DNA from: an uncultured Collinsella sp.
Lineage (GTDB): Bacteria; Actinomycetota; Coriobacteriia; Coriobacteriales; Coriobacteriaceae
Assembly (NCBI GenBank): GCA_900543275.1
Contig: UQQL01000001.1
Coordinates: 39,674 to 103,673 of the forward strand
Length of the DNA stretch: 64,000 nucleotides
Reading direction: 5' to 3'
Shown here: in pieces, positions 5,233 through 56,421 of the stretch
Position numbering within the stretch: position 1 is the first letter of the stretch
Layout of the letters: the number at the start of each line of letters is the position of its first letter
Translations under genes and position numbers: made by a program
The notes under the pieces: generated by a model
Told to the model about the DNA's origin: nothing
Databases searched by the model: none
The model's input: the letters and a program-made list of their open reading frames with translations, nothing else

Positions 5233-5819
5233 TACTCATCGCCTCCCTTCGAGGCGTCGGCGGCAGTGGCTTCGTCCTCGGCCTCGAGCTCGCGAGCGAG
5301 CTGGTCGACGACAGCCTTGCGCTTGCGGGGACGACGGGCGTAGAGGTCAGCCGTCGTGGGCTCTGCCGGCTCGGGCTCGGGCTCTGCAGCAGGCTCGGGC
5401 TCGACGGCAGGCTCGGCGGCAGCGGCAGGCTCGGCCTCGGCACCCTCGGCCTCGGACTCCTCAGCAGCACCCTCGCCCTCGGCGGCAGCCTCGCTCGCGG
5501 CCTTCTCGGCAGCAAGGCGGGCACGACGCTCGGCAAAGGTCTCCTTCTTGGCGGGCGCTACCGTCTCGGCGGCATCCTCGTCCGCATCGGAATCGTCATC
5601 GACGGCAGCCTTCTTGGGCTTGACCGGAGCCGAAGCGGCCTCGCTTACCGGATCGATGATCTCGGACTGGACAACCGCCGTCATCTTTTCCTGCGTCTCG
5701 CGGAACTGACGGATGGCACGGCCGATCGTACGGCCCATCTGCGGGAGCTTATCCGGGCCAAACAGCAAAAAGCCGAAGACCACGATGATTGCCAGCTCAC
5801 CTTCTCCAATACCAAACAC
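5232..5819 (-). CDS. tatA: Sec-independent translocase TatA/TatB family protein with a long Ala/Glu-rich tail
   Basis: FGIGEGELAIIVVFGFLLFGPDKLP TatA signature. Probable GTG start at 5819, 5 nt after GGAGG. The track's upstream Met extension is unlikely to be real. Confidence 0.75.
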   Translation of the reverse strand: MFGIGEGELAIIVVFGFLLFGPDKLPQMGRTIGRAIRQFRETQEKMTAVVQSEIIDPVSEAASAPVKPKKAAVDDDSDADEDAAETVAPAKKETFAERRARLAAEKAASEAAAEGEGAAEESEAEGAEAEPAAAAEPAVEPEPAAEPEPEPAEPTTADLYARRPRKRKAVVDQLARELEAEDEATAADASKGGDE

Positions 5820-5972
5820 ACATACCTCCAAGGCTCGATGTGATTCGAGCCCGCACCGCGCCATTCGGCCGGAACTCGTCTATTCATTCGGTCAAGTATA
5901 GCGCCCGGACGCCAAAACGTCCGAGCGCATCACAAACATATGCCAAACGGCACGCCCTTTTGGGGACAAAGA

Positions 5973-6287
5973 TTATGCAGCGGTGATCGAAATCTCCTGG
6001 TCGACGCCCAACAGCTGAACCACGCGCATCACCGGGGGCTGCACGTTGACGCAGCTAAAACGCTTACTATGATCAGCTGCGTGGTGTGCGGCGCCCACAA
6101 GCACGCCAATGCCCGTCGAATCGATGTAGCTCACCTGGGCAAAATCGAGCTCAACGGCCTCAGTGGGCTGCTCGAGCGCCAGGTCGATGGCATTGCGCAG
6201 GCTATCGGCGTTAGAGATATCGATCTCACCGGTCACCTTAATGGTGTAGAGCTCTGGCGTGGGGTTGGTAGAAATACCCAAATCCAT
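5973..6287 (-). CDS. STAS-domain anti-sigma factor antagonist-like protein
   Basis: SpoIIAA-like pattern (LDFAQVSYIDSTGIGVLV) and an AAAGGAG RBS. Confidence 0.7.
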   Translation of the reverse strand: MDLGISTNPTPELYTIKVTGEIDISNADSLRNAIDLALEQPTEAVELDFAQVSYIDSTGIGVLVGAAHHAADHSKRFSCVNVQPPVMRVVQLLGVDQEISITAA

Positions 6288-6353
6288 GTATACGCTCCTT
6301 TACGTATCGAAAGTGCGGATAGTACTAGGCGCGGACTTGCGGGGCCCTACGCG

Positions 6354-7658
6354 TTAGGCGCGCTCGGTACGCGCAAGCTCGGCAGCGACGAGCTTGACAG
6401 CCAGCACCAGCACATCGAGCGCAGCCTCCAGGTCCTCGACCGTGGGATAGCTCGGCGCGATGCGGATGTTGGTGTCGCGCGGATCCTTGCCATAAGGCCA
6501 GGTGGCACCAGCCGGCGTGAGCTTGACGCCCAGGTCGGCACAAAGCGCGGCGACCTTTTGGGCCGAGCCCTCGGGACCATCGAAGCTCACAAAGTAGCCG
6601 CCGCGGGGATGCGTCCAAGTGGCGCAACCCGTATCGCCCAGACCCTCGGTGAGCTTGCGCTCAACGGCCTCAAAGCGCGGGCGCAGGAACTCGGCATGCT
6701 TTTTCATGTGTTCCTTGACCGCCTCGATGGTGGGAAGGAAGCGCACGTGGCGCAGCTGGTTGAGCTTATCGGCGCTAATAAGACCGGCCTTCAGGCGCTT
6801 GGAGAACTCGGCGATGACCGCGGGGCTCGCACCGATAAAGCCGATGCCGGCGCCCGGGAAGGTGATCTTGGACGTCGAGGCAAAGGCCACCACGCGATCC
6901 TCGGTGCCCGCCGCGCGAGCGAGGTCAAAGATATTTGCGAGCTCGTCGGTCTCGTCGTACAGGTCGTGCACGCAGTAAGCGTTGTCCCAAAAGATGCGGA
7001 AATCGGGCGCGGCCGTGGGCATCTCGACCAGGCGGCGCACAGTGTCCTCGCTAAAGGTGATGCCCGTGGGGTTGGAATACTTGGGCACGCACCAGATGCC
7101 CTTGATGGAATCGTCGGCGGCAACCAGGCGCTCAACCTCGTCCATGTCGGGGCCGTTGTCGGTCATCGCGACGGGGACGTTCTCGATGCCCAAGTCGGCG
7201 GTGATGCCAAAGTGGCGATCGTAGCCGGGAACGGGGCACAGGAACTTGACCTTCTTGCCGTCGTGCGCGGCCTCGTAGGCGTCCCAGGGCTCGCTGCCGC
7301 ACGAGCCACAGCGCCAGAACATGCCGGCGATGTCATGCTCAATCAAAAGGCTCGATGAGCCCAGTACGAGCGTCTGCTCGGCAGGACAACCCAGGAACTC
7401 CCCCGCCAGCTTGCGTGCCGAGGGAATGCCCTCGAAGCAACCGTAGTTGGAGCAGTCGACATTGCCGTCGTGCAGATCGGCATCGGCATTGAGGATATCG
7501 AGCATGGGGCGAGAAATGTTCACCTGGGAGGGCGACGGCTTGCCGCGCGCCATGTCGAGCGCCAGGCCCTTGGCCTTGACCTCGGCAACCTCGGCTTTAA
7601 GCGCCTCGATGGCGGCATCGAGTTCGGTGGTTTCCATCTTCTGGTAGATCGTCTGCAT
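6354..7658 (-). CDS. PLP-dependent aminotransferase (class I/II fold, aspartate-aminotransferase-like family)
   Basis: 434 aa with an SKITFPGAGIG lysine region and overall fold-type I aminotransferase layout. Confidence 0.75.
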   Translation of the reverse strand: MQTIYQKMETTELDAAIEALKAEVAEVKAKGLALDMARGKPSPSQVNISRPMLDILNADADLHDGNVDCSNYGCFEGIPSARKLAGEFLGCPAEQTLVLGSSSLLIEHDIAGMFWRCGSCGSEPWDAYEAAHDGKKVKFLCPVPGYDRHFGITADLGIENVPVAMTDNGPDMDEVERLVAADDSIKGIWCVPKYSNPTGITFSEDTVRRLVEMPTAAPDFRIFWDNAYCVHDLYDETDELANIFDLARAAGTEDRVVAFASTSKITFPGAGIGFIGASPAVIAEFSKRLKAGLISADKLNQLRHVRFLPTIEAVKEHMKKHAEFLRPRFEAVERKLTEGLGDTGCATWTHPRGGYFVSFDGPEGSAQKVAALCADLGVKLTPAGATWPYGKDPRDTNIRIAPSYPTVEDLEAALDVLVLAVKLVAAELARTERA

Positions 7659-8063: not shown

Positions 8064-8067
8064 AACC

Positions 8068-15738: not shown

Positions 15739-16039
15739 AGTCCTCGCTTTCGTGTTCTAGAGCTTCCGGTTGGAGACGGGTTTGCCTTGGCAGGTTATCC
15801 GGCGCGGGCGCGCACCTGATATCTGGATATTCAGCCCGCCAAAACAAAGCCGCCCCCAAACGGTCGGGCCTGCCGTGCGGCATGGTTCCGTTTGTTGGCT
15901 ACAACTATAGCGCTCTAATTTAATAAGTAAAGCGTCTTTTTCTTTTTTCTTTCTCGAACTTCTTTTATAAAAGTAATATGGGTGCCTCGTTGCGGGTTAT
16001 ACTTACTTATGTATTGATATATGTCGGAAAGGAGGTTCC
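15739..16039. promoter_or_regulatory. AT-rich divergent promoter/operator region between the bgl-PTS operon and the gntR-family regulator
   Basis: GC falls sharply across 15900-16040 relative to the flanks. Confidence 0.4.
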
Positions 16040-16759
16040 ATGATTCCCAAATACGAGGCGATAGCTGCGGATATTCGTCGAAGCATCGAAGACGGCGCTC
16101 TTAAGCCGGGCGACAAGCTGCCCACCGTCGTTGAGTTCTGCGAGCTCTATAGCGTTTCCAAGATCACCGTCAAACGAGCGATTGAGCAGATTACTGAGGA
16201 AGGCCTCATTACCAGCCGACGCGGATCGGGCACCTACGTCAAGGACACGGCGGGACTTCCCAGCAAGGCGTTTTTCCAGGGCAAGAACGACCGTGCCCAG
16301 GGCTTTTCGTATGAGCACCGCGGGGAGAAGGTGACCTCGGTGGTCTACGATTTCTCGATTGTCAATCCACCGGCGGACGTCGCTGCCCAGCTGGGAATTG
16401 CCGAGGATGACTTTGCCTACCACATCGTGCGCGTGCGCCAGGTTGACGAGAAGCCCATCGTTATCGAGTACACCTACATGCCCCTCGAGCTGATTCCGGG
16501 CCTTAAAAAGAAGGACCTGTACGGATCGGTCTACAGCTTCATCCGCAAGCAATGCGGGCTGAAGATTTCGAGCTTCCACCGCACCATTCGCGCCGTAGCG
16601 GCAACCGAGGAAGAGGCTGAGCGCCTGGACACCAAACCCGGCTCTCCCCTGCTCGAGCTCAACCAGATTGGCTTTTTGGATAGCGGCACCGCCTTTGAGC
16701 ATTCGATCTCGCGCAACGTTGGTGACCGCTTTGAGCTGCACAACGTAACGTTGGCATAG
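16040..16759 (+). CDS. GntR/HutC-family transcriptional regulator (HTH plus UTRA effector domain)
   Basis: N-terminal winged HTH (LPTVVEFCELYSVSKITVKRAI) and a C-terminal UTRA domain; GAAAGGAGG RBS. Confidence 0.85.
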   Translation: MIPKYEAIAADIRRSIEDGALKPGDKLPTVVEFCELYSVSKITVKRAIEQITEEGLITSRRGSGTYVKDTAGLPSKAFFQGKNDRAQGFSYEHRGEKVTSVVYDFSIVNPPADVAAQLGIAEDDFAYHIVRVRQVDEKPIVIEYTYMPLELIPGLKKKDLYGSVYSFIRKQCGLKISSFHRTIRAVAATEEEAERLDTKPGSPLLELNQIGFLDSGTAFEHSISRNVGDRFELHNVTLA

Positions 16760-26246: not shown

Positions 26247-27278
26247 TTACAGTTCCACCACGGTGCCCAGCCCCGCCTCGACGGCGCGGTCGTAGGCGAT
26301 TTTCGATGCCGAAAGGTCCTGAACGGCGATGCCCGACGTATCGAACACCGTCACCTGTTCGTCATCCGAACGTCCCGTAGCCGTGCCGGCGATGACTTCA
26401 CCGAGCTCCGCTTTGATGTCCTCGGGGGTGATGGCACCCTCGGCAACCGGAATCTCCAGCTCGCCGGATGCGACCGATTGCTCGCGGTCGTCGACGTAAA
26501 CAGCGGCGCGGGCGACAAGTGCCGAGGCGAGCTCCTGTTTGCCGGGCATGTCGGCACCGGCGCAGGAAATATGCGTACCGGGGCGCACCCATGCATCGGG
26601 GATGATGGGCTTGGTCGCCGGCGTGATCGTCACGATGATGTCGGCCTCTGCCGCGGCGCCTTGGCCGTCGGCCGTCGCCTCGATGGAATAGGTGGATGCC
26701 TCGCGAGCATGCTCGCAAGCGCCCAAGATATGGGCGACCTCGTCTCGCATGCGCTCGACGCGAGCCTCGGGCGCGGCATCGGAAACCGGCTCCCACACCT
26801 TGACCTCGCTCACTTTGGGACAGGCGGCGAGCACGCCCGCCACCATATAGGTGCTCATGTGGCCGGCACCCGCAACAAGCAGTTTGGACGCATCCGCCCG
26901 AGCCAGCCACTTGGCGCCGAGCGCAGCGGCAGCACCGGTGCGAAGTCCAGTGACGGCGGAGGCATTGAGCAGCGCCAACGGCTCGCCCGTCGCGTTGTCG
27001 CACAGCAGCGTAGTGCCAAAGATCTCGGGGAGCCTCTTTTTGGGATTCTGAGAGAACCAAGCAGTGAGCTTCAGGCCGAAGAGGCCGCTTCCCGCCAACT
27101 CGCCCGAGCGGATATCCATATCGGCCACGCCGGGTTCGAACTGCTCATATACCATCGGCCACGCAACACCCTTGCCCGTTGCCTTCTGGCGATATGCCTC
27201 CTCCACGGCAGCGATTGCATCCTCGATCGTCAGCACCTTGGAAACTTCCTCGGCCGAAAGCACCACCATCTGCCCCAT
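26247..27278 (-). CDS. ornithine cyclodeaminase/mu-crystallin family protein (possible ketimine reductase or cyclodeaminase)
   Basis: OCD_Mu_crystall family Rossmann motif (LLVAGAGHMS); AAAGGAG RBS. Confidence 0.85.
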   Translation of the reverse strand: MGQMVVLSAEEVSKVLTIEDAIAAVEEAYRQKATGKGVAWPMVYEQFEPGVADMDIRSGELAGSGLFGLKLTAWFSQNPKKRLPEIFGTTLLCDNATGEPLALLNASAVTGLRTGAAAALGAKWLARADASKLLVAGAGHMSTYMVAGVLAACPKVSEVKVWEPVSDAAPEARVERMRDEVAHILGACEHAREASTYSIEATADGQGAAAEADIIVTITPATKPIIPDAWVRPGTHISCAGADMPGKQELASALVARAAVYVDDREQSVASGELEIPVAEGAITPEDIKAELGEVIAGTATGRSDDEQVTVFDTSGIAVQDLSASKIAYDRAVEAGLGTVVEL

Positions 27279-27489
27279 CATCGCTCCTTTCAGCGAAAGC
27301 TTTACGTTGCTTCACTGTACGGTTTAGTAACGATGCCGCCAAGGATCATTTTTTGTTGGAATCTACAACAATTCTTAATCTGATTTTTTGCTCTATCAGC
27401 AGATATTTGAACTATTTCTCGCATCAACGGCATACGGATGTGCGATTATCCTTTTTATGCCGGTATTTATTGTAGTGATTTACAGGGTG

Positions 27490-28677
27490 ATGTTGATGCT
27501 ATACACCGTCTCGGACTTCTCACGGGAATATGAGGGGTCGGTCCGTCTAATCGCCGGCAGCGATGGCATCTCGCGTGCCGTCTCCGGCGTTGGGATCCTC
27601 GATTATGAACTCATGCCCGGCCTCAAGAACAAGTACCAGCGCGTCAACTTCAGCTCAGACGAGATCGTCCTCAGCACCTTCCTCTATGCGAAGGACGACC
27701 CGCACCTCATCACTGAAGCCGTGAAATACCTCGTCGCCAAGGGAACGAGCGGTCTCATCATCAAAAACGTCCTGCACATCCCGATTCCCGACCAAGCCAT
27801 CCGCTACGCCAACGCGCGGCACTACCCGGTCTTTCTCACGACCGACGACTCACTGTTCTTTGACAGCGTCATCTATGAGGTCAAACGGCATATCGAGCAG
27901 CTCGCGTCCATCGACTTCGCACAGCGCGAGATCGATGCCCTGAGGACAGACGTATCGCCCGAGTCCATCTGCCGACGCATCCGAGGCCTCAACCCGTCAT
28001 TTCTGGACGAAGCGGTCGCCCTGTTCACATCGTTTGCAGAGCCCCTCGACCCGCGTACGTTTTTGCAAATCGAACGTCTCCGTGCAAAATCGACCCTCGC
28101 CGGATGCCACAACATGCTGGCACCCTATGACGGAGGTCTGTTATTCGTAGCGACAAGCGACTCGGAGCAGACGCTCGATGTGGAGCGAATCGTGCAGGCG
28201 CTCACGGAGCTCATCGAGGCTAGCGGCATCGATGGCGGAGCGGAAGGGCTTGGCATCAGCGATATTCTGTTTGGAGACGAGGCGGTGGCGCAGGCGATCT
28301 CGCAGGCGATTTACGCACAGCGCCTATCTTGTCAACGAGCCGAGGGTCCCGTCCGCTATACGCAGCTCGGCATCCTGAGAACCGTGATGCCTTTTGCGGA
28401 AACCCCGGAGATGCGATCGTTCTCGGAGGCGATTCTCTCGCCGATACGCGAGCACGACAGTGAGCATGGCAGCGAGCTGGAATCCACGCTCGCCGCATTC
28501 ATCGAGAACGACCGACGTATCGAGCGAACCGCCAAGCAGACTGGCCAGCACCCGAACACGATTCGATATCGCCTCGATAAGGTGACGGCTCTCACCGGAC
28601 TGAGCTACAAATGCGCCCCGGAGATGGAGCAGCTGTCGCTCGCCTACGCCATCGAACGCGCTCGCTCGCTTCAGTAA
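27490..28677 (+). CDS. PucR-family transcriptional regulator
   Basis: C-terminal PucR HTH (TAKQTGQHPNTIRYRLDKV) and an N-terminal PurC-like domain. The track's first 34 aa fall in an AT-rich promoter region and are not coding. Confidence 0.75.
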   Translation: MLMLYTVSDFSREYEGSVRLIAGSDGISRAVSGVGILDYELMPGLKNKYQRVNFSSDEIVLSTFLYAKDDPHLITEAVKYLVAKGTSGLIIKNVLHIPIPDQAIRYANARHYPVFLTTDDSLFFDSVIYEVKRHIEQLASIDFAQREIDALRTDVSPESICRRIRGLNPSFLDEAVALFTSFAEPLDPRTFLQIERLRAKSTLAGCHNMLAPYDGGLLFVATSDSEQTLDVERIVQALTELIEASGIDGGAEGLGISDILFGDEAVAQAISQAIYAQRLSCQRAEGPVRYTQLGILRTVMPFAETPEMRSFSEAILSPIREHDSEHGSELESTLAAFIENDRRIERTAKQTGQHPNTIRYRLDKVTALTGLSYKCAPEMEQLSLAYAIERARSLQ

Positions 28678-31526: not shown

Positions 31527-32168
31527 ATGGTCTCGCGGGTTCTCTACCGACCGTTTGATACCGAAGATTTCGACGCCATCGCGCTGATCTTGCAGCAGCT
31601 TTGGCACAACAACTCGGATAACGATGAGTACAACCGCCTCGAAGCCGCGTGCGACCTCGCCTATTGCCTTTCTTCCTCAACGTTTTCGCAGGTTGCAGTT
31701 ATAGATGGCGAGGCGCGCGGCATTTCGCTTGCGCGTGCGGGACAGAGCTCCGGCACCGCCGTCAGGGAACATTGGATGGATACTGAGCGTACACTGCTGT
31801 CGCAGATGCGTGAGCTAGAACCCGAGTCGTGCGCCGAGTATCTCTCGTTTGTGCGCGCCACCATTCGAACCAACAACCGCCTGCTCGAGAAAAGCCCACT
31901 GCCGCATGACAATGAGGTCACGCTGCTCGCCGTCGACCCTGACGTCCACGGCCTGGGCGTGGGATCGGTGCTGCTCGACGCCGCAATCTCACATCTGTCC
32001 TCGTGCGGGGCGACCAGCGCACACCTGTATACCGATTCCAACTGCTCGTGGAAATTCTACGAGCTGCACGGCTTTAAGCGCACGGCCACGCACCGCGCCA
32101 ACCGCGAAGAGCGCCGTCACGACATGCCGCGTGAAAGCTTTCTCTACGAACTCGACCTAACAGCCTAG
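31527..32168 (+). CDS. GNAT-family N-acetyltransferase
   Basis: Acetyl-CoA motif A (LAVDPDVHGLGVGSVLL); AAAGAGG RBS. Confidence 0.8.
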   Translation: MVSRVLYRPFDTEDFDAIALILQQLWHNNSDNDEYNRLEAACDLAYCLSSSTFSQVAVIDGEARGISLARAGQSSGTAVREHWMDTERTLLSQMRELEPESCAEYLSFVRATIRTNNRLLEKSPLPHDNEVTLLAVDPDVHGLGVGSVLLDAAISHLSSCGATSAHLYTDSNCSWKFYELHGFKRTATHRANREERRHDMPRESFLYELDLTA

Positions 32169-32184
32169 CCCAGGCAGCCACACC

Positions 32185-32213
32185 TAGTCATTTAAGTCTG
32201 TCCCCAATGAGTA
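32185..32213 (-). repeat. family A hairpin motif copy 3 (reverse orientation, degenerate loop)
   Basis: tagtcatttaagtctgtccccaatgagta versus tagtcatttaagaacgtccccaatgact, the reverse complement of copy 2. Confidence 0.5.
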
Positions 32214-32250
32214 GCCTTGGTGATCTGCAAATAGCTGTGGTCAAAAAACA

Positions 32251-32453
32251 TCAAATATGAGTACTGTTACCTTTTTAGTAGCAGCGATTTGGGGCATTTT
32301 TGATGCTTGTAGGCATGACGACCAGCTGCACGAGCTGACGTAGCTCCCCAAATGTTCAATAAAATAGGCTCCTAACGAGAAGTACTCTCATTAGGAGCCA
32401 TTATTATGTGCAAACATATGTGACCAACGCAGCAACAGTACTCATATTTGGCA
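32251..32453. mobile_element. MITE-like AT-rich insert with 17-bp perfect terminal inverted repeats
   Basis: CAAATATGAGTACTGTT at 32251-32267 and AACAGTACTCATATTTG at 32437-32453. The roughly 170-bp interior is near 40% GC in a roughly 65% GC genome. It has internal hairpin ggctcctaa...ttaggagcc. Confidence 0.4.
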
Positions 32454-32578
32454 TTTTTTGTCCACTGCCCCTTGCGCGAAGGTCCTCAGCGGAAAGTTTG
32501 ACCCGTTTCGATGCACAAAAATGGGATGAATCTTCCCTGGCAACCGCCCAGAAAGATCCACCCCAAAGCAAGCGCTCG

Positions 32579-34525
32579 CTAGAACGTTCCGCCGCCGCCT
32601 CCGCCGACGCCGCCACCGCCGCCACCGGAAAAGCCGCCGCCGCTGCCGCCGCTCGAGCTATCGGAACTCGAAGCCAGCTCGCGGATGGTCTCGTGGTACA
32701 CATCGTTGAACGAATCGAGCGGGGACTCGTTGCCGTAGTGATGGTAATACCACCAGTAGCAGGGGTAGTTGTCGTAGAAATCGTCGCTGTTGCGCAGGTC
32801 CGCTGGCACGGCCTCGGCCAGCTGTCGCAGCACTTCTTTCGAAACGCCCAGGGCAACGCCCATCACCAGCAGTTTGTTCCACAAGATCAGGTCGCTGGGA
32901 ATGGCCTCCTTCAGGCGCGTAAAGTCCTCAAGCCAATGCTTGAGCGCCTTGCAGCGAGCCGCCACCTCGGCGCCCTCCGGCGTGTAGCGGCGGAAGGTGC
33001 AGCTCAGGACAAAGCCCACGATCGTGACGGGGATCGAGATCATAGCGGCACCGACGTTGGCGTCCGCAAAGTCGGTATAGATCAGAGAGCCCAGAATGCC
33101 AAAGACGATGATGATACCGATAACCAAGCCGGCAACCAGGGCGATGGTGCCGTCCGATGCAATAAGCTCGCGCGCCTCCAGCTTGCCCTTAACTGCGCTC
33201 TGATAGTCCTCGAGCTTGTCGCCAACAGATGTGGTGCGCTCGCTAGCGTACTCCTCCAGCTCGCTAAACGTGCGCGAACGGACTCCGTCCTTATCGGGCT
33301 TAACGCCGGCGAAGAAGACCTTGAGCACATCGCGATCGATGCCGTCCTTCTTGGCAGCCTTCCAGGCCTCGTCGGTCACTGTGATGCGATACGTCTGCTC
33401 CTCTTTTTCGCGACGGAGCAGACCCTTCTTCTTGGTCTCGGTCGCTTCTTCCAGCTTGATCACGCGGTCGTCGGTGAGCTTCATAAGCGTGGCGATATAT
33501 GCCTGATCGGGCACGTCGTTCCAGCTCATGAGGGCCGAAAGCACGGCGGGATGGTCGGCCGAAGGCACATCGCGGAAATATTCGTCCTGGAAAAGCGGCT
33601 TGGGCTTGCGGCGGCGCAGCTTGAGCACAACGATTGTGCCGGTAAAGGCCACCGCCGCGACAACACTTAGCACGGCAAGCGCATTGGCAATCATGCGAGC
33701 GTGAGCGCGGCGAGCGTTGGCCTCGTCGGCCCATTCCTTCTCTTCGCTCAGAATCGTCGACATGCGCTTTTCGCCCGAGACGGCAAGCTGCGGCACCCAG
33801 TCGCTGGGGAAGGCGATGCGTGCCTCGGCGAATTCGCCCTCATGCACGCAGGGAATGGTATAGGTGACCATGGGCTCGTCCGCATCGAGCGACACGTCGC
33901 CCGTCAGTGGGCCGTGGCCCCATGCGCGGAAGTTATCGCCCTTGACGGCAGCCGTCCCGGCAGCGGCATTTGCAAAGTAGACTTCCATCTCGACGTCATC
34001 GGAATCCGCCGACCAGCCGTCACCCACGAACTTCCAGTAGAGCTCGGCGGTATCGGCCCAGTTCATAACCGCACCGGTCATGGAATAACTCACGTAGTAG
34101 ATTGCGCTGTCGCCGCTCTCGTGGGGGCTGAACACCTTAATCTTTACGCCGTCGTCGGACTGCTCCACCGTGTAAACGCCGTCGTCGCCTTTGTTTGCGC
34201 TGTCGACCTTGTTAAACGCAGCGTCGTCTTCCTCGACGCTCAGCACATTGACGACCACCGAGCCGCCTTGCTGGTTAGAGCCTGTATTGATATCCCAATA
34301 CACGCCGTTAATGTCGTCGTCGAAATCGAACTGGCGTCCCTCGACAACGGTCAGCGAGCCATCGGCCTCAACCGTGGCACCGATATAGGTTTGGCTCATG
34401 GAGTAGCCGTCGGCGTGCGCGACGGCAGGCAGCAGCAACAACGCAAGCGCGACGAGTGCGCAGACGGAAGCGAACCGCGCAAACAGGCGGCGCTGCCGAC
34501 AGGGCTGGGCAACGGGGGCGTTCAT
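32579..34525 (-). CDS. DUF2207-family membrane protein (signal peptide, extracytoplasmic domain, TM region, Gly-rich tail)
   Basis: Signal peptide ending AHADG, internal TM helices and a C-terminal SSGGSGGGFSGGGGGGVGGGGG tail typical of DUF2207. Start at the Met preceded by AAAGGA. Confidence 0.7.
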   Translation of the reverse strand: MNAPVAQPCRQRRLFARFASVCALVALALLLLPAVAHADGYSMSQTYIGATVEADGSLTVVEGRQFDFDDDINGVYWDINTGSNQQGGSVVVNVLSVEEDDAAFNKVDSANKGDDGVYTVEQSDDGVKIKVFSPHESGDSAIYYVSYSMTGAVMNWADTAELYWKFVGDGWSADSDDVEMEVYFANAAAGTAAVKGDNFRAWGHGPLTGDVSLDADEPMVTYTIPCVHEGEFAEARIAFPSDWVPQLAVSGEKRMSTILSEEKEWADEANARRAHARMIANALAVLSVVAAVAFTGTIVVLKLRRRKPKPLFQDEYFRDVPSADHPAVLSALMSWNDVPDQAYIATLMKLTDDRVIKLEEATETKKKGLLRREKEEQTYRITVTDEAWKAAKKDGIDRDVLKVFFAGVKPDKDGVRSRTFSELEEYASERTTSVGDKLEDYQSAVKGKLEARELIASDGTIALVAGLVIGIIIVFGILGSLIYTDFADANVGAAMISIPVTIVGFVLSCTFRRYTPEGAEVAARCKALKHWLEDFTRLKEAIPSDLILWNKLLVMGVALGVSKEVLRQLAEAVPADLRNSDDFYDNYPCYWWYYHHYGNESPLDSFNDVYHETIRELASSSDSSSGGSGGGFSGGGGGGVGGGGGGTF

Positions 34526-34646
34526 AGGCACATCCTTTGTCTGTGGTACCAGTAGCGTCATTGTCCCACGTTTGCGAGTTCATGTGACGAACATCTAGGT
34601 CAGCGGAGCGTCAAAACGGGACAAAAGTCACGCCCGCCGCCGGCAC

Positions 34647-56418: not shown

Positions 56419-56421
56419 GAT

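Follow-up and report, generated by a model that had tools for sequence, protein, structure and literature searches.

The Correia elements of Neisseria, which are MITEs (miniature inverted-repeat transposable elements), are 100-300 bp long, non-coding and AT-rich, and have terminal inverted repeats of a few tens of nucleotides and a long hairpin. They are dispersed in intergenic regions, often at gene ends, show insertion polymorphism between strains and can carry terminator- or promoter-like signals. The ERIC (IRU) elements of the enterobacteria are imperfect palindromes found in transcribed intergenic regions, at moderate copy number and in discrete size variants. No transposase is known for them, and their sequence is conserved across species beyond the neutral prediction. 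An RNase III-dependent or RNA-stability role in 3' UTRs has been proposed for both the Correia and the ERIC elements. The REPINs are doublets of REP sequences mobilised by RAYT. They consist of two inverted conserved units joined by a less conserved spacer, are extragenic, and persist vertically, recent copies being few or absent. The genus Collinsella is common in the gut and associated with disease, and to our knowledge almost no mobile or regulatory non-coding elements have been described in it.

The segment described here lies in a 64,000-nucleotide stretch of Collinsella DNA (called the "window" below). It is a member of a Collinsella-specific family of foldback elements, which are non-coding, measure about 240 bp and have the architecture of a MITE. 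The size, inverted repeats, hairpin, location and polymorphism listed above for the Correia elements and shared by bacterial MITEs are common to the Collinsella family. The features given for ERIC and IRU also resemble those of the family. However, there is no sequence relationship between them, the hosts belong to different phyla, the Collinsella element is about twice the length, and its conservation is concentrated in the arms, whereas that of ERIC and IRU is spread over the whole element. The REPINs are likewise similar in the properties given above, but the Collinsella arms do not appear to be short palindromic REP hairpins and the element is two to three times longer. No paper linking Collinsella with MITEs was found in the literature. 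The family is apparently undescribed so far; it falls within a broadly known kind but has some properties that are unusual.

The window genome belongs to the Collinsella aerofaciens group, and its GNAT protein occurs in identical form on many human-gut contigs, including GCA_003467795.1. The element lies between two convergent genes, a GNAT acetyltransferase gene on the plus strand and a DUF2207 gene on the minus strand, and beside a degenerate hairpin of REP-like type, in agreement with the initial annotation (Table 1). A perfect 17-nt repeat, CAAATATGAGTACTGTT, is found at 32252-32268 and its exact reverse complement at 32434-32450. These are the only two sites of the 17-mer in the whole 64 kb. 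The expectation for such an inverted repeat by chance is 0.03 matches, and two or more matches were found in none of 100 shuffles, which confirms the perfect 17-bp inverted repeats reported initially. The unit bounded by the repeats is 199 bp long (32252-32450); the earlier span of 203 bp, 32251-32453, was 1-3 nt off.

The arms are longer than the 17 nt first assigned to them. The inverted repeat extends imperfectly to 42 nt at 81% (32227-32268 and 32434-32475), and an nhmmer profile of 105 family copies picks out 32229-32473 (E=7e-56) as the single copy in the window. Between the arms of the family the inverted-repeat signal is significant to about 19-22 nt outside the 17-mer, and then drops to background. 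The true arms comprise an inverted repeat of about 37 nt followed by about 18-22 nt of conserved inner sequence, or about 55 nt together. There is no longer outer palindrome, the outer flanks scoring no better than the control; at the window locus a weak extended outer similarity is obtained with gaps only.

Table 1. Features of the element and its surroundings, in window coordinates
Feature	Position	Strand	Basis or remarks
GNAT acetyltransferase gene, left neighbour	31527..32168	+	PF13673, PF13508, PF00583
REP-like hairpin (CCTAGTCATT...AATGAGTAGCC), outside the element	32183..32216		related window motifs at 8066 and 56421
Segment missing from empty alleles (element plus about 12 nt of left and about 40 nt of right flank)	32217..32513		alignment with loci L152 and L153
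Whole element, about 245 bp	32229..32473		family profile limits; arm-to-arm signal at background about 19-22 nt outside the 17-mers
Left, A-type arm: GTGGTCAAAAAACATCAAATATGAGTACTGTT, then conserved inner part ACCTTTTTAGTAGCAGCG	32232..32286	+	family consensus, information content over 75 arms
Hypervariable interior	32287..32345		about one third of positions differ between orthologous copies with identical arms
Central hairpin (32367-32399) with tail TATTTTATTG, terminator-like	32357..32399	-	terminator scan; 15-copy alignment
Right arm, B-type, minus-strand sequence: GTGGACAAAAAATGCCAAATATGAGTACTGTT, then conserved inner part GCTGCGTTGGTCACATATGTTTGC	32411..32470	-	consensus; 17-mer at 32434-32450
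Terminator-like hairpin and T-run downstream of the DUF2207 gene, outside the element	32514..32563	-	read from the sequence
DUF2207 gene, right neighbour, convergent	32579..34561	-	PF09972, PF20990

The inner hairpin noted earlier, ggctcctaa...ttaggagcc, is indeed present at 32367-32399; it has 15 pairs and a T-rich tail on the minus strand. The short direct repeats that had also been reported reduce to one exact 9-mer, GGCATTTTT, at 32293 and 32450. The copy at 32450 is part of the conserved right arm, and that at 32293 lies in the variable interior and is not kept in orthologues, so the repeat is probably due to chance.

The repeat-bounded unit has a GC content of 42.2%, compared with 61.7% for the window. 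It is thus AT-rich, as first described, but its composition is not alien to the genome. Other 199-bp stretches below 45% GC occur in the window only at about 15.8 kb and 27.2-27.5 kb, and these are ordinary intergenic DNA upstream of ORFs, showing that intergenic DNA here is normally low in GC and that the composition of the unit does not speak for a foreign origin. The two AT-rich islands (15811-16120 and 27221-27570, 38-44% GC) are of promoter type. One precedes an ORF with a GntR-like start, MIPKYEAIAADIRRS..., at about 16040, and the other belongs to a divergent pair around 27380.

The REP-like hairpin that adjoins the element belongs to a second repeat family, separate from the element, built on CCTAGTCGTTGGGGAC and GTCCCCAACGACTAGG. 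In the window its hairpins occur beside the element, at about 8066 and at 56421 (the latter two on the minus strand), and further ones occur at loci L010, L164, L179 and L205. The GNAT-DUF2207 intergenic region contains one, two or three of these units, depending on the strain. They are found at the left junction of the indel that contains the element and, elsewhere, beside other copies of the family (L086, L118, L122). At the 3' end of the DUF2207 gene (32579-32660) the C-terminus is encoded by a GCC/GCCGCC-rich low-complexity run. The product is called as 648 or 649 aa in strains with an identical GNAT protein, and the longest ORF in the window has 660 aa.

A scan for the 17-mer with one genome per species gave at least 119 loci, almost all of them in Collinsella among the matches listed, and DNA matching the family is overwhelmingly annotated as Collinsella or C. 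aerofaciens. The GNAT and DUF2207 flanks are present at about 12 of the at least 119 listed loci; most of the others have a different context. The initial annotation had proposed a search for additional copies, and more than 100 were recovered from Collinsella genomes. Clustering of their flanks gave about 12 distinct contexts, all beside housekeeping genes. The neighbouring genes encode Nramp, peptidase C69, glutamine synthetase III, an aminotransferase with asparagine synthase, an ABC transporter with DAHP synthase, TatD with Band 7, an amino-acid permease, phosphoglucomutase and a Na+/H+ antiporter. In nearly all contexts at least one gene end faces the element. Five assemblies have two loci each, in different contexts.

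Eight matching places were found in a 0.9-Mb record of C. aerofaciens, NZ_OY725717.1, and the family profile found no copy in its first 250 kb. This record (L157-L162; 899,693 bp) has been deposited, and is included in PLSDB, as "plasmid 6" of C. aerofaciens TSDC17.2-1.1. Among its genes are recA, ftsK, rho and rny, together with many ribosomal protein genes and genes of aminoacyl-tRNA synthetases; it is therefore a piece of chromosome. Two copies were found in bins assigned to other organisms, Methanobrevibacter smithii (L093, CAVHBE010000048.1) and Alloprevotella sp. (L095, CAVGCW010000011.1). Both have Collinsella-type flanks, belonging to context clusters C4 and C2, respectively, and are probably binning contamination. 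A search of a phage collection gave no family match. A phage origin was rejected, because the IMG/VR matches share their chromosomal context clusters with bacterial contigs.

The conserved arm has the consensus (s)(s)cnGTGGnCAAAAAAnnnCAAATATGAGTACTGT(T/C), followed by one of two inner continuations, ACCwwTTTAGTArCAGCrAwTT in the A arm and GCnAAGnTAGTCACATATrTTT in the B arm. Most elements pair an A arm with a B arm. S-rich sequence without a fixed TG makes up the outer 4-7 nt of the arms, and the canonical arms have no obvious internal hairpin by eye. In one variant context the boxes GTGGTCAAAAAA and TGAGTACTGT are kept and the spacer is different. The right arm of this variant, GTGGTCAAAAAACGCCGTTTGTGAGTACTGTCACAAACGGCGT, forms a perfect hairpin of 13-14 bp with T6 behind it, a textbook terminator situated beside the Na+/H+ antiporter gene (L031, L092, L103, L105 and L116; for example, L103 6738-6990). 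ATG codons are present in both arms and open ORFs of 28 aa (MSTVTFLVAAIWG...) and 13 aa, whose lengths and sequences are not conserved. In the family, peptides initiated in the arms are 5-89 aa long, have only their first ten or so residues in common and end at different stops, which points to conservation of the DNA and not to coding. A protein-coding function was therefore rejected.

The GNAT-DUF2207 site was compared among relatives. Three syntenic purH-GNAT-DUF2207 loci in which GNAT is 77%, 58% and 51% identical have intergenic regions of 1, 267 and 80 nt, respectively, without the element. The 267-nt and 80-nt regions of these distant relatives contain ordinary terminators. In a set of 80 metagenomic loci from close relatives (GNAT 93-100% identical; 15 loci unresolved), the allele is empty in 35, with an intergenic region of 105-183 nt lacking the arms, and filled in 29, with an intergenic region of 402-497 nt containing an element of 198-200 bp. 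The one remaining locus has an unrelated 486-nt insert. This locus (L220), with neither an element nor a short empty allele, carries an array of units of about 45-50 nt, each a GGGAT...TTTCC-type hairpin resembling the DUF2207 terminator. Retained in the empty alleles are the hairpins of REP-like type and, downstream of DUF2207, the terminator-like hairpin with its block GCGCATAAAAATGGGATGGATCC...GATCCATCCC. The element was gained in this lineage and is accessory and polymorphic at the site. The initial annotation had reasoned that a single-copy segment conserved in relatives as a UTR would speak against a mobile element; the family is multi-copy, and the site is empty in the 35 relatives' loci.

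The indel at the site is not a clean arm-to-arm insertion. About 297 bp in filled alleles stand against about 8-26 bp of other sequence; the indel exceeds the element by about 50 nt and ends beyond its arms. In the empty alleles about 8 nt (cgtaggta) replace 32217-32513. The left junction is just past the REP-like sequence GGGGACAGTCTT, and in fuller alleles the left side is about 60 nt longer than in the window allele.

The arms and the interior of the element evolve differently. Copies from different contexts have arms that are at least 0.9 identical and interiors that are at most 0.68 identical (shuffles: mean 0.49, maximum 0.56). Within orthologous sets the identity is 0.85-0.94 for the arms as against 0.66-0.87 for the interiors. 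The left arm is better conserved than the interior in all eight clusters and the right arm in seven of the eight; at the window locus the left arm is near-invariant among orthologues. The arms are thus constrained in place, unlike those of a dead transposon. No near-identical copies were found across contexts, and there is therefore no sign of recent movement. Facing plus and minus 17-mers (at most 3 mismatches) were found in 108 loci. Their arm-to-arm lengths are 179 bp (3 loci), 189-190 bp (43 loci) and 199-201 bp (61 loci), with almost nothing between. Despite the divergence of the interiors, in which substitutions are close to saturation, the length is held within ±1 bp inside classes that are about 10-11 bp apart, a step of about one turn of the DNA helix (~10.5 bp).

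The two arms of an element also co-vary. An element's own arms match each other beyond permuted pairs at the free positions -19, -18 and -11 (z = 6.9, 4.4 and 7.1), and neither positions -3 to -1 nor the inner arm showed co-variation. Symmetric double changes number 24 within clusters; one of them, GTGG to GTGT in both arms, occurred in three separate lineages. Base-pairing or arm-to-arm conversion fits this co-variation better than protein recognition alone.

The Correia elements make a TA target duplication, whereas no direct repeat of 2-9 bp was enriched at any pair of offsets in 31 representative Collinsella copies. They have hundreds of copies, as compared with the eight matching places in the 0.9-Mb record. 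Also unlike the Correia elements, the Collinsella copies at different loci are alike only in their arms, have arms that are constrained in place, and lack a cognate transposase among the loci searched. The initial annotation had suggested looking for target-site duplications and for a cognate transposase, and both searches were negative: no autonomous element or transposase gene with matching ends was found among the 134 loci holding the 17-mer. The outer arm box was found in no other sequence in 1.57 Mb of Collinsella DNA.

Two candidate parents were rejected. An arm pair 965 bp apart (L087) proved to be an element interrupted by an IS200/IS605-type tnpA. At 5675-6639 of this locus the copy is split near its central region by an IS200/IS605-type element of about 765 bp, whose tnpA ORF is at 5848-6459 (...YSLSHTKWMCKYHVVFTPKYRRK...HVHMLL...). 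The other candidate, an IS1249-family element of C. aerofaciens, has ends without significant similarity to the arms. Six further copies are truncated or abutted by one kind of foreign end, GGT(A/G)GCGCGC(G)CAGA(G/C)(A/G)TGTGGTGTAAGAG..., at differing internal positions; the end lies inside the element in five (L017, L041, L097, L114, L125) and just outside the right arm in the sixth (L063). It seems that one insertion sequence lands repeatedly in elements of the family.

The arm sequence GTGGTCAAAAAATGGC resembles GTGGTCAACAAAAACTGGC of the IS911 right end (PMC2909936), with an alignment score of 11 that is reached by 0.7% of shuffles, in a comparison chosen post hoc. The subterminal region of this end has been proposed to be bound and bridged by an N-terminal fragment of the transposase (PMC2909936). 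The likeness to the IS3 family is confined to this short subterminal motif, GTGGTCAA(C)AAAA(AC)TGGC, noticed after the fact. The Collinsella element differs from that family in having neither the terminal TG...CA nor a 3-5 bp duplication, and no IS3-type gene with these ends was found.

Terminal inverted repeats, a small non-coding size and several dispersed copies per genome are all found in the family, as in MITEs. A defining feature of MITEs was tested for and not found, and the family is accordingly called MITE-like here and is not counted as a member. The initial interpretation as a non-autonomous transposable element therefore stands in part. The element is multi-copy, dispersed, non-coding, bounded by inverted repeats and absent from the site in relatives; against this, target-site duplications, a transposase, a full-length parent and near-identical copies were not found in the searches described above, and the indel exceeds the repeat-bounded unit.

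An old, MITE-like foldback element whose arms are bound by a protein acting in trans is an explanation that has about an even chance of being correct. A transposase or a relative of one, supplied in trans, would recognise GTGGnCAAAAAA-N10-TGAGTACTGT in both arms and bring the two arms together. Recognition and pairing of the arms would explain why they are kept while the interior drifts, why the length classes are about one helical turn apart, and why only some sites and some strains have the element. If both ends of a short, stiff DNA are synapsed, as in the synapsis of short transposons, the length is expected to change in steps of about 10.5 bp, and the classes of the Collinsella family may have arisen in this way. 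The copies would have landed long ago, by transposition, in AT-rich regions at gene ends, and would now be inherited mostly vertically or by allelic recombination. In the 200-bp subfamily, to which the window copy belongs, the centre would contain a one-directional intrinsic terminator, and transcripts arriving from the side of the B arm, here the DUF2207 side, should stop inside the element.

A simple MITE is argued against by the absence of a duplication in the copies compared, the lack of a partner and of recent copies in the collections searched, and the in-place constraint and co-variation of the arms. In view of these four findings there is real scope for an exapted function, be it as terminator, insulator or determinant of RNA stability, and also for a small-RNA cassette. 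The structure of the centre bears on both. In 15 copies of the 200-bp class, taken from five contexts, the central hairpin has compensatory changes at 12 of its 15 pairs and is followed by an invariant TTTTATT tail on the B-to-A strand only. A stem, a U-rich tract and compensatory changes, as in an intrinsic terminator, are all present, and the plus strand has no consistent U-tail. From its sequence, the hairpin looks like the signature of a unidirectional intrinsic terminator. The 189-bp subfamilies have no comparable central hairpin. The whole element folds far better than its shuffles on both strands (z = -7.6 and -9.2), because of the repeats.

The element could have been exapted by the host as a cis-acting foldback, with a stem of about 45 bp formed by the arms and a central terminator, acting in RNA or DNA at gene ends. 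It would either stop or insulate transcription between genes or serve as an RNase III or stability determinant in read-through 3' UTRs, with host selection keeping the arms. This possibility, which is rather unlikely, agrees with the strong folding, with the covarying hairpin and its invariant U-rich tail, and with the gene ends that face the element in nearly all contexts. Within orthologous sets the arms outdo not only the interiors but also most flanks in conservation, their free positions have co-varied in several independent lineages, and in the variant context the whole right arm is a perfect hairpin with T6. However, among the resolved loci of close relatives more than half are without the element, and these keep the terminator-like hairpin of DUF2207, so that the element is dispensable here. 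A structural role would, moreover, conserve the pairing and not the sequence of the arms across some 12 loci, and the spacer at -3 to -1 and the inner arm do not co-vary. The orientation with respect to the upstream gene is inconsistent between tandem contexts, and the 189-bp subfamilies have no strong central hairpin.

A small RNA with terminators, the other reading offered initially, receives some support from the covarying hairpin and its one-strand U-tail. Such a cassette would have a putative inward promoter, TGGnCA-18-TACTGT, in each arm. From the B arm a minus-strand RNA of about 70 nt (~32428 to 32358) is predicted to end at the central terminator, and from the A arm a convergent RNA of about 125 nt, the two overlapping at the hairpin. 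They would form a cis-antisense pair, laid out like the type I toxin-antitoxin loci with overlapping 3' ends. The conserved stretch begins about 40 nt ahead of the predicted start and ends about 10 nt past it, which is the span of a promoter; the terminator and its invariant tail point from B to A in five contexts; and a conserved block, ACATATGT, lies between the B arm and the hairpin. The sigma-70 match in the arm (TGGTCA-18-TACTGT) nevertheless scores 7/12, which is the background found upstream of arbitrary genes; clear Collinsella promoters reach 9-10/12 on the same score, and a consensus promoter scan of the element found none. No conserved (hydrophobic) peptide ORF of the type I toxin kind is present, the would-be body of the RNA is the least conserved part of the element, the plus strand lacks a consistent U-tail, and no Rfam family matches (best E=6.4, far below the gathering score). 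The small-RNA cassette is quite improbable. No tRNA or tmRNA was found in the element by ARAGORN, and no map of transcription start sites for C. aerofaciens was found in the literature. An outward promoter, with a -35 of TTGGCA in the arm and TATAAC in the flank, occurs in contexts C1 and C6 only and was rejected as a general property of the family.

Conserved inverted repeats that enclose about 165 bp of variable sequence, at many loci of a gut bacterium, are also what would be expected of an inverton, that is, a short segment flipped by a site-specific recombinase using a repeat common to many loci in each genome. This reading is extremely improbable and effectively refuted: none of 564 copy pairs with shared flanks and alignable interiors was inverted, and most copies are situated at the ends of genes rather than in front of them. 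A palindrome that arose by chance in ordinary intergenic or 3' UTR sequence would suit the low GC normal for such DNA here, but it has next to no probability and is refuted by the shuffles, none of 100 of which reproduced the repeat, and by the more than 100 homologous copies elsewhere.

Taken jointly, two further readings, in which the arms are no relics of a transposon but working sites of the host for a bridging DNA-binding protein, or belong to guide-like small RNAs, are unlikely. In the former, a protein, possibly a domesticated transposase, may bridge inverted sites of about 37 nt lying integral helical turns apart, at some 10-20 gene-end loci per genome. In the latter, the small RNAs may have a conserved 5' handle, a freely evolving body and a shared terminator. 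If true, either version would mean that a major Actinobacterium of the gut has a new system, common to the whole genus, for regulation or for organising the chromosome.

The family is of use as a polymorphic strain marker at otherwise conserved housekeeping loci, and the element is a recurrent landing pad for other insertion sequences. The conservation of the arms in place, the length steps of ~10.5 bp, the co-varying arms and the nearly free interior fit a simple dead MITE poorly. They make the family a testable case either for a protein that synapses both ends of a very short DNA, as in the old, MITE-like element preferred here, or for a foldback exapted as a terminator at gene ends.
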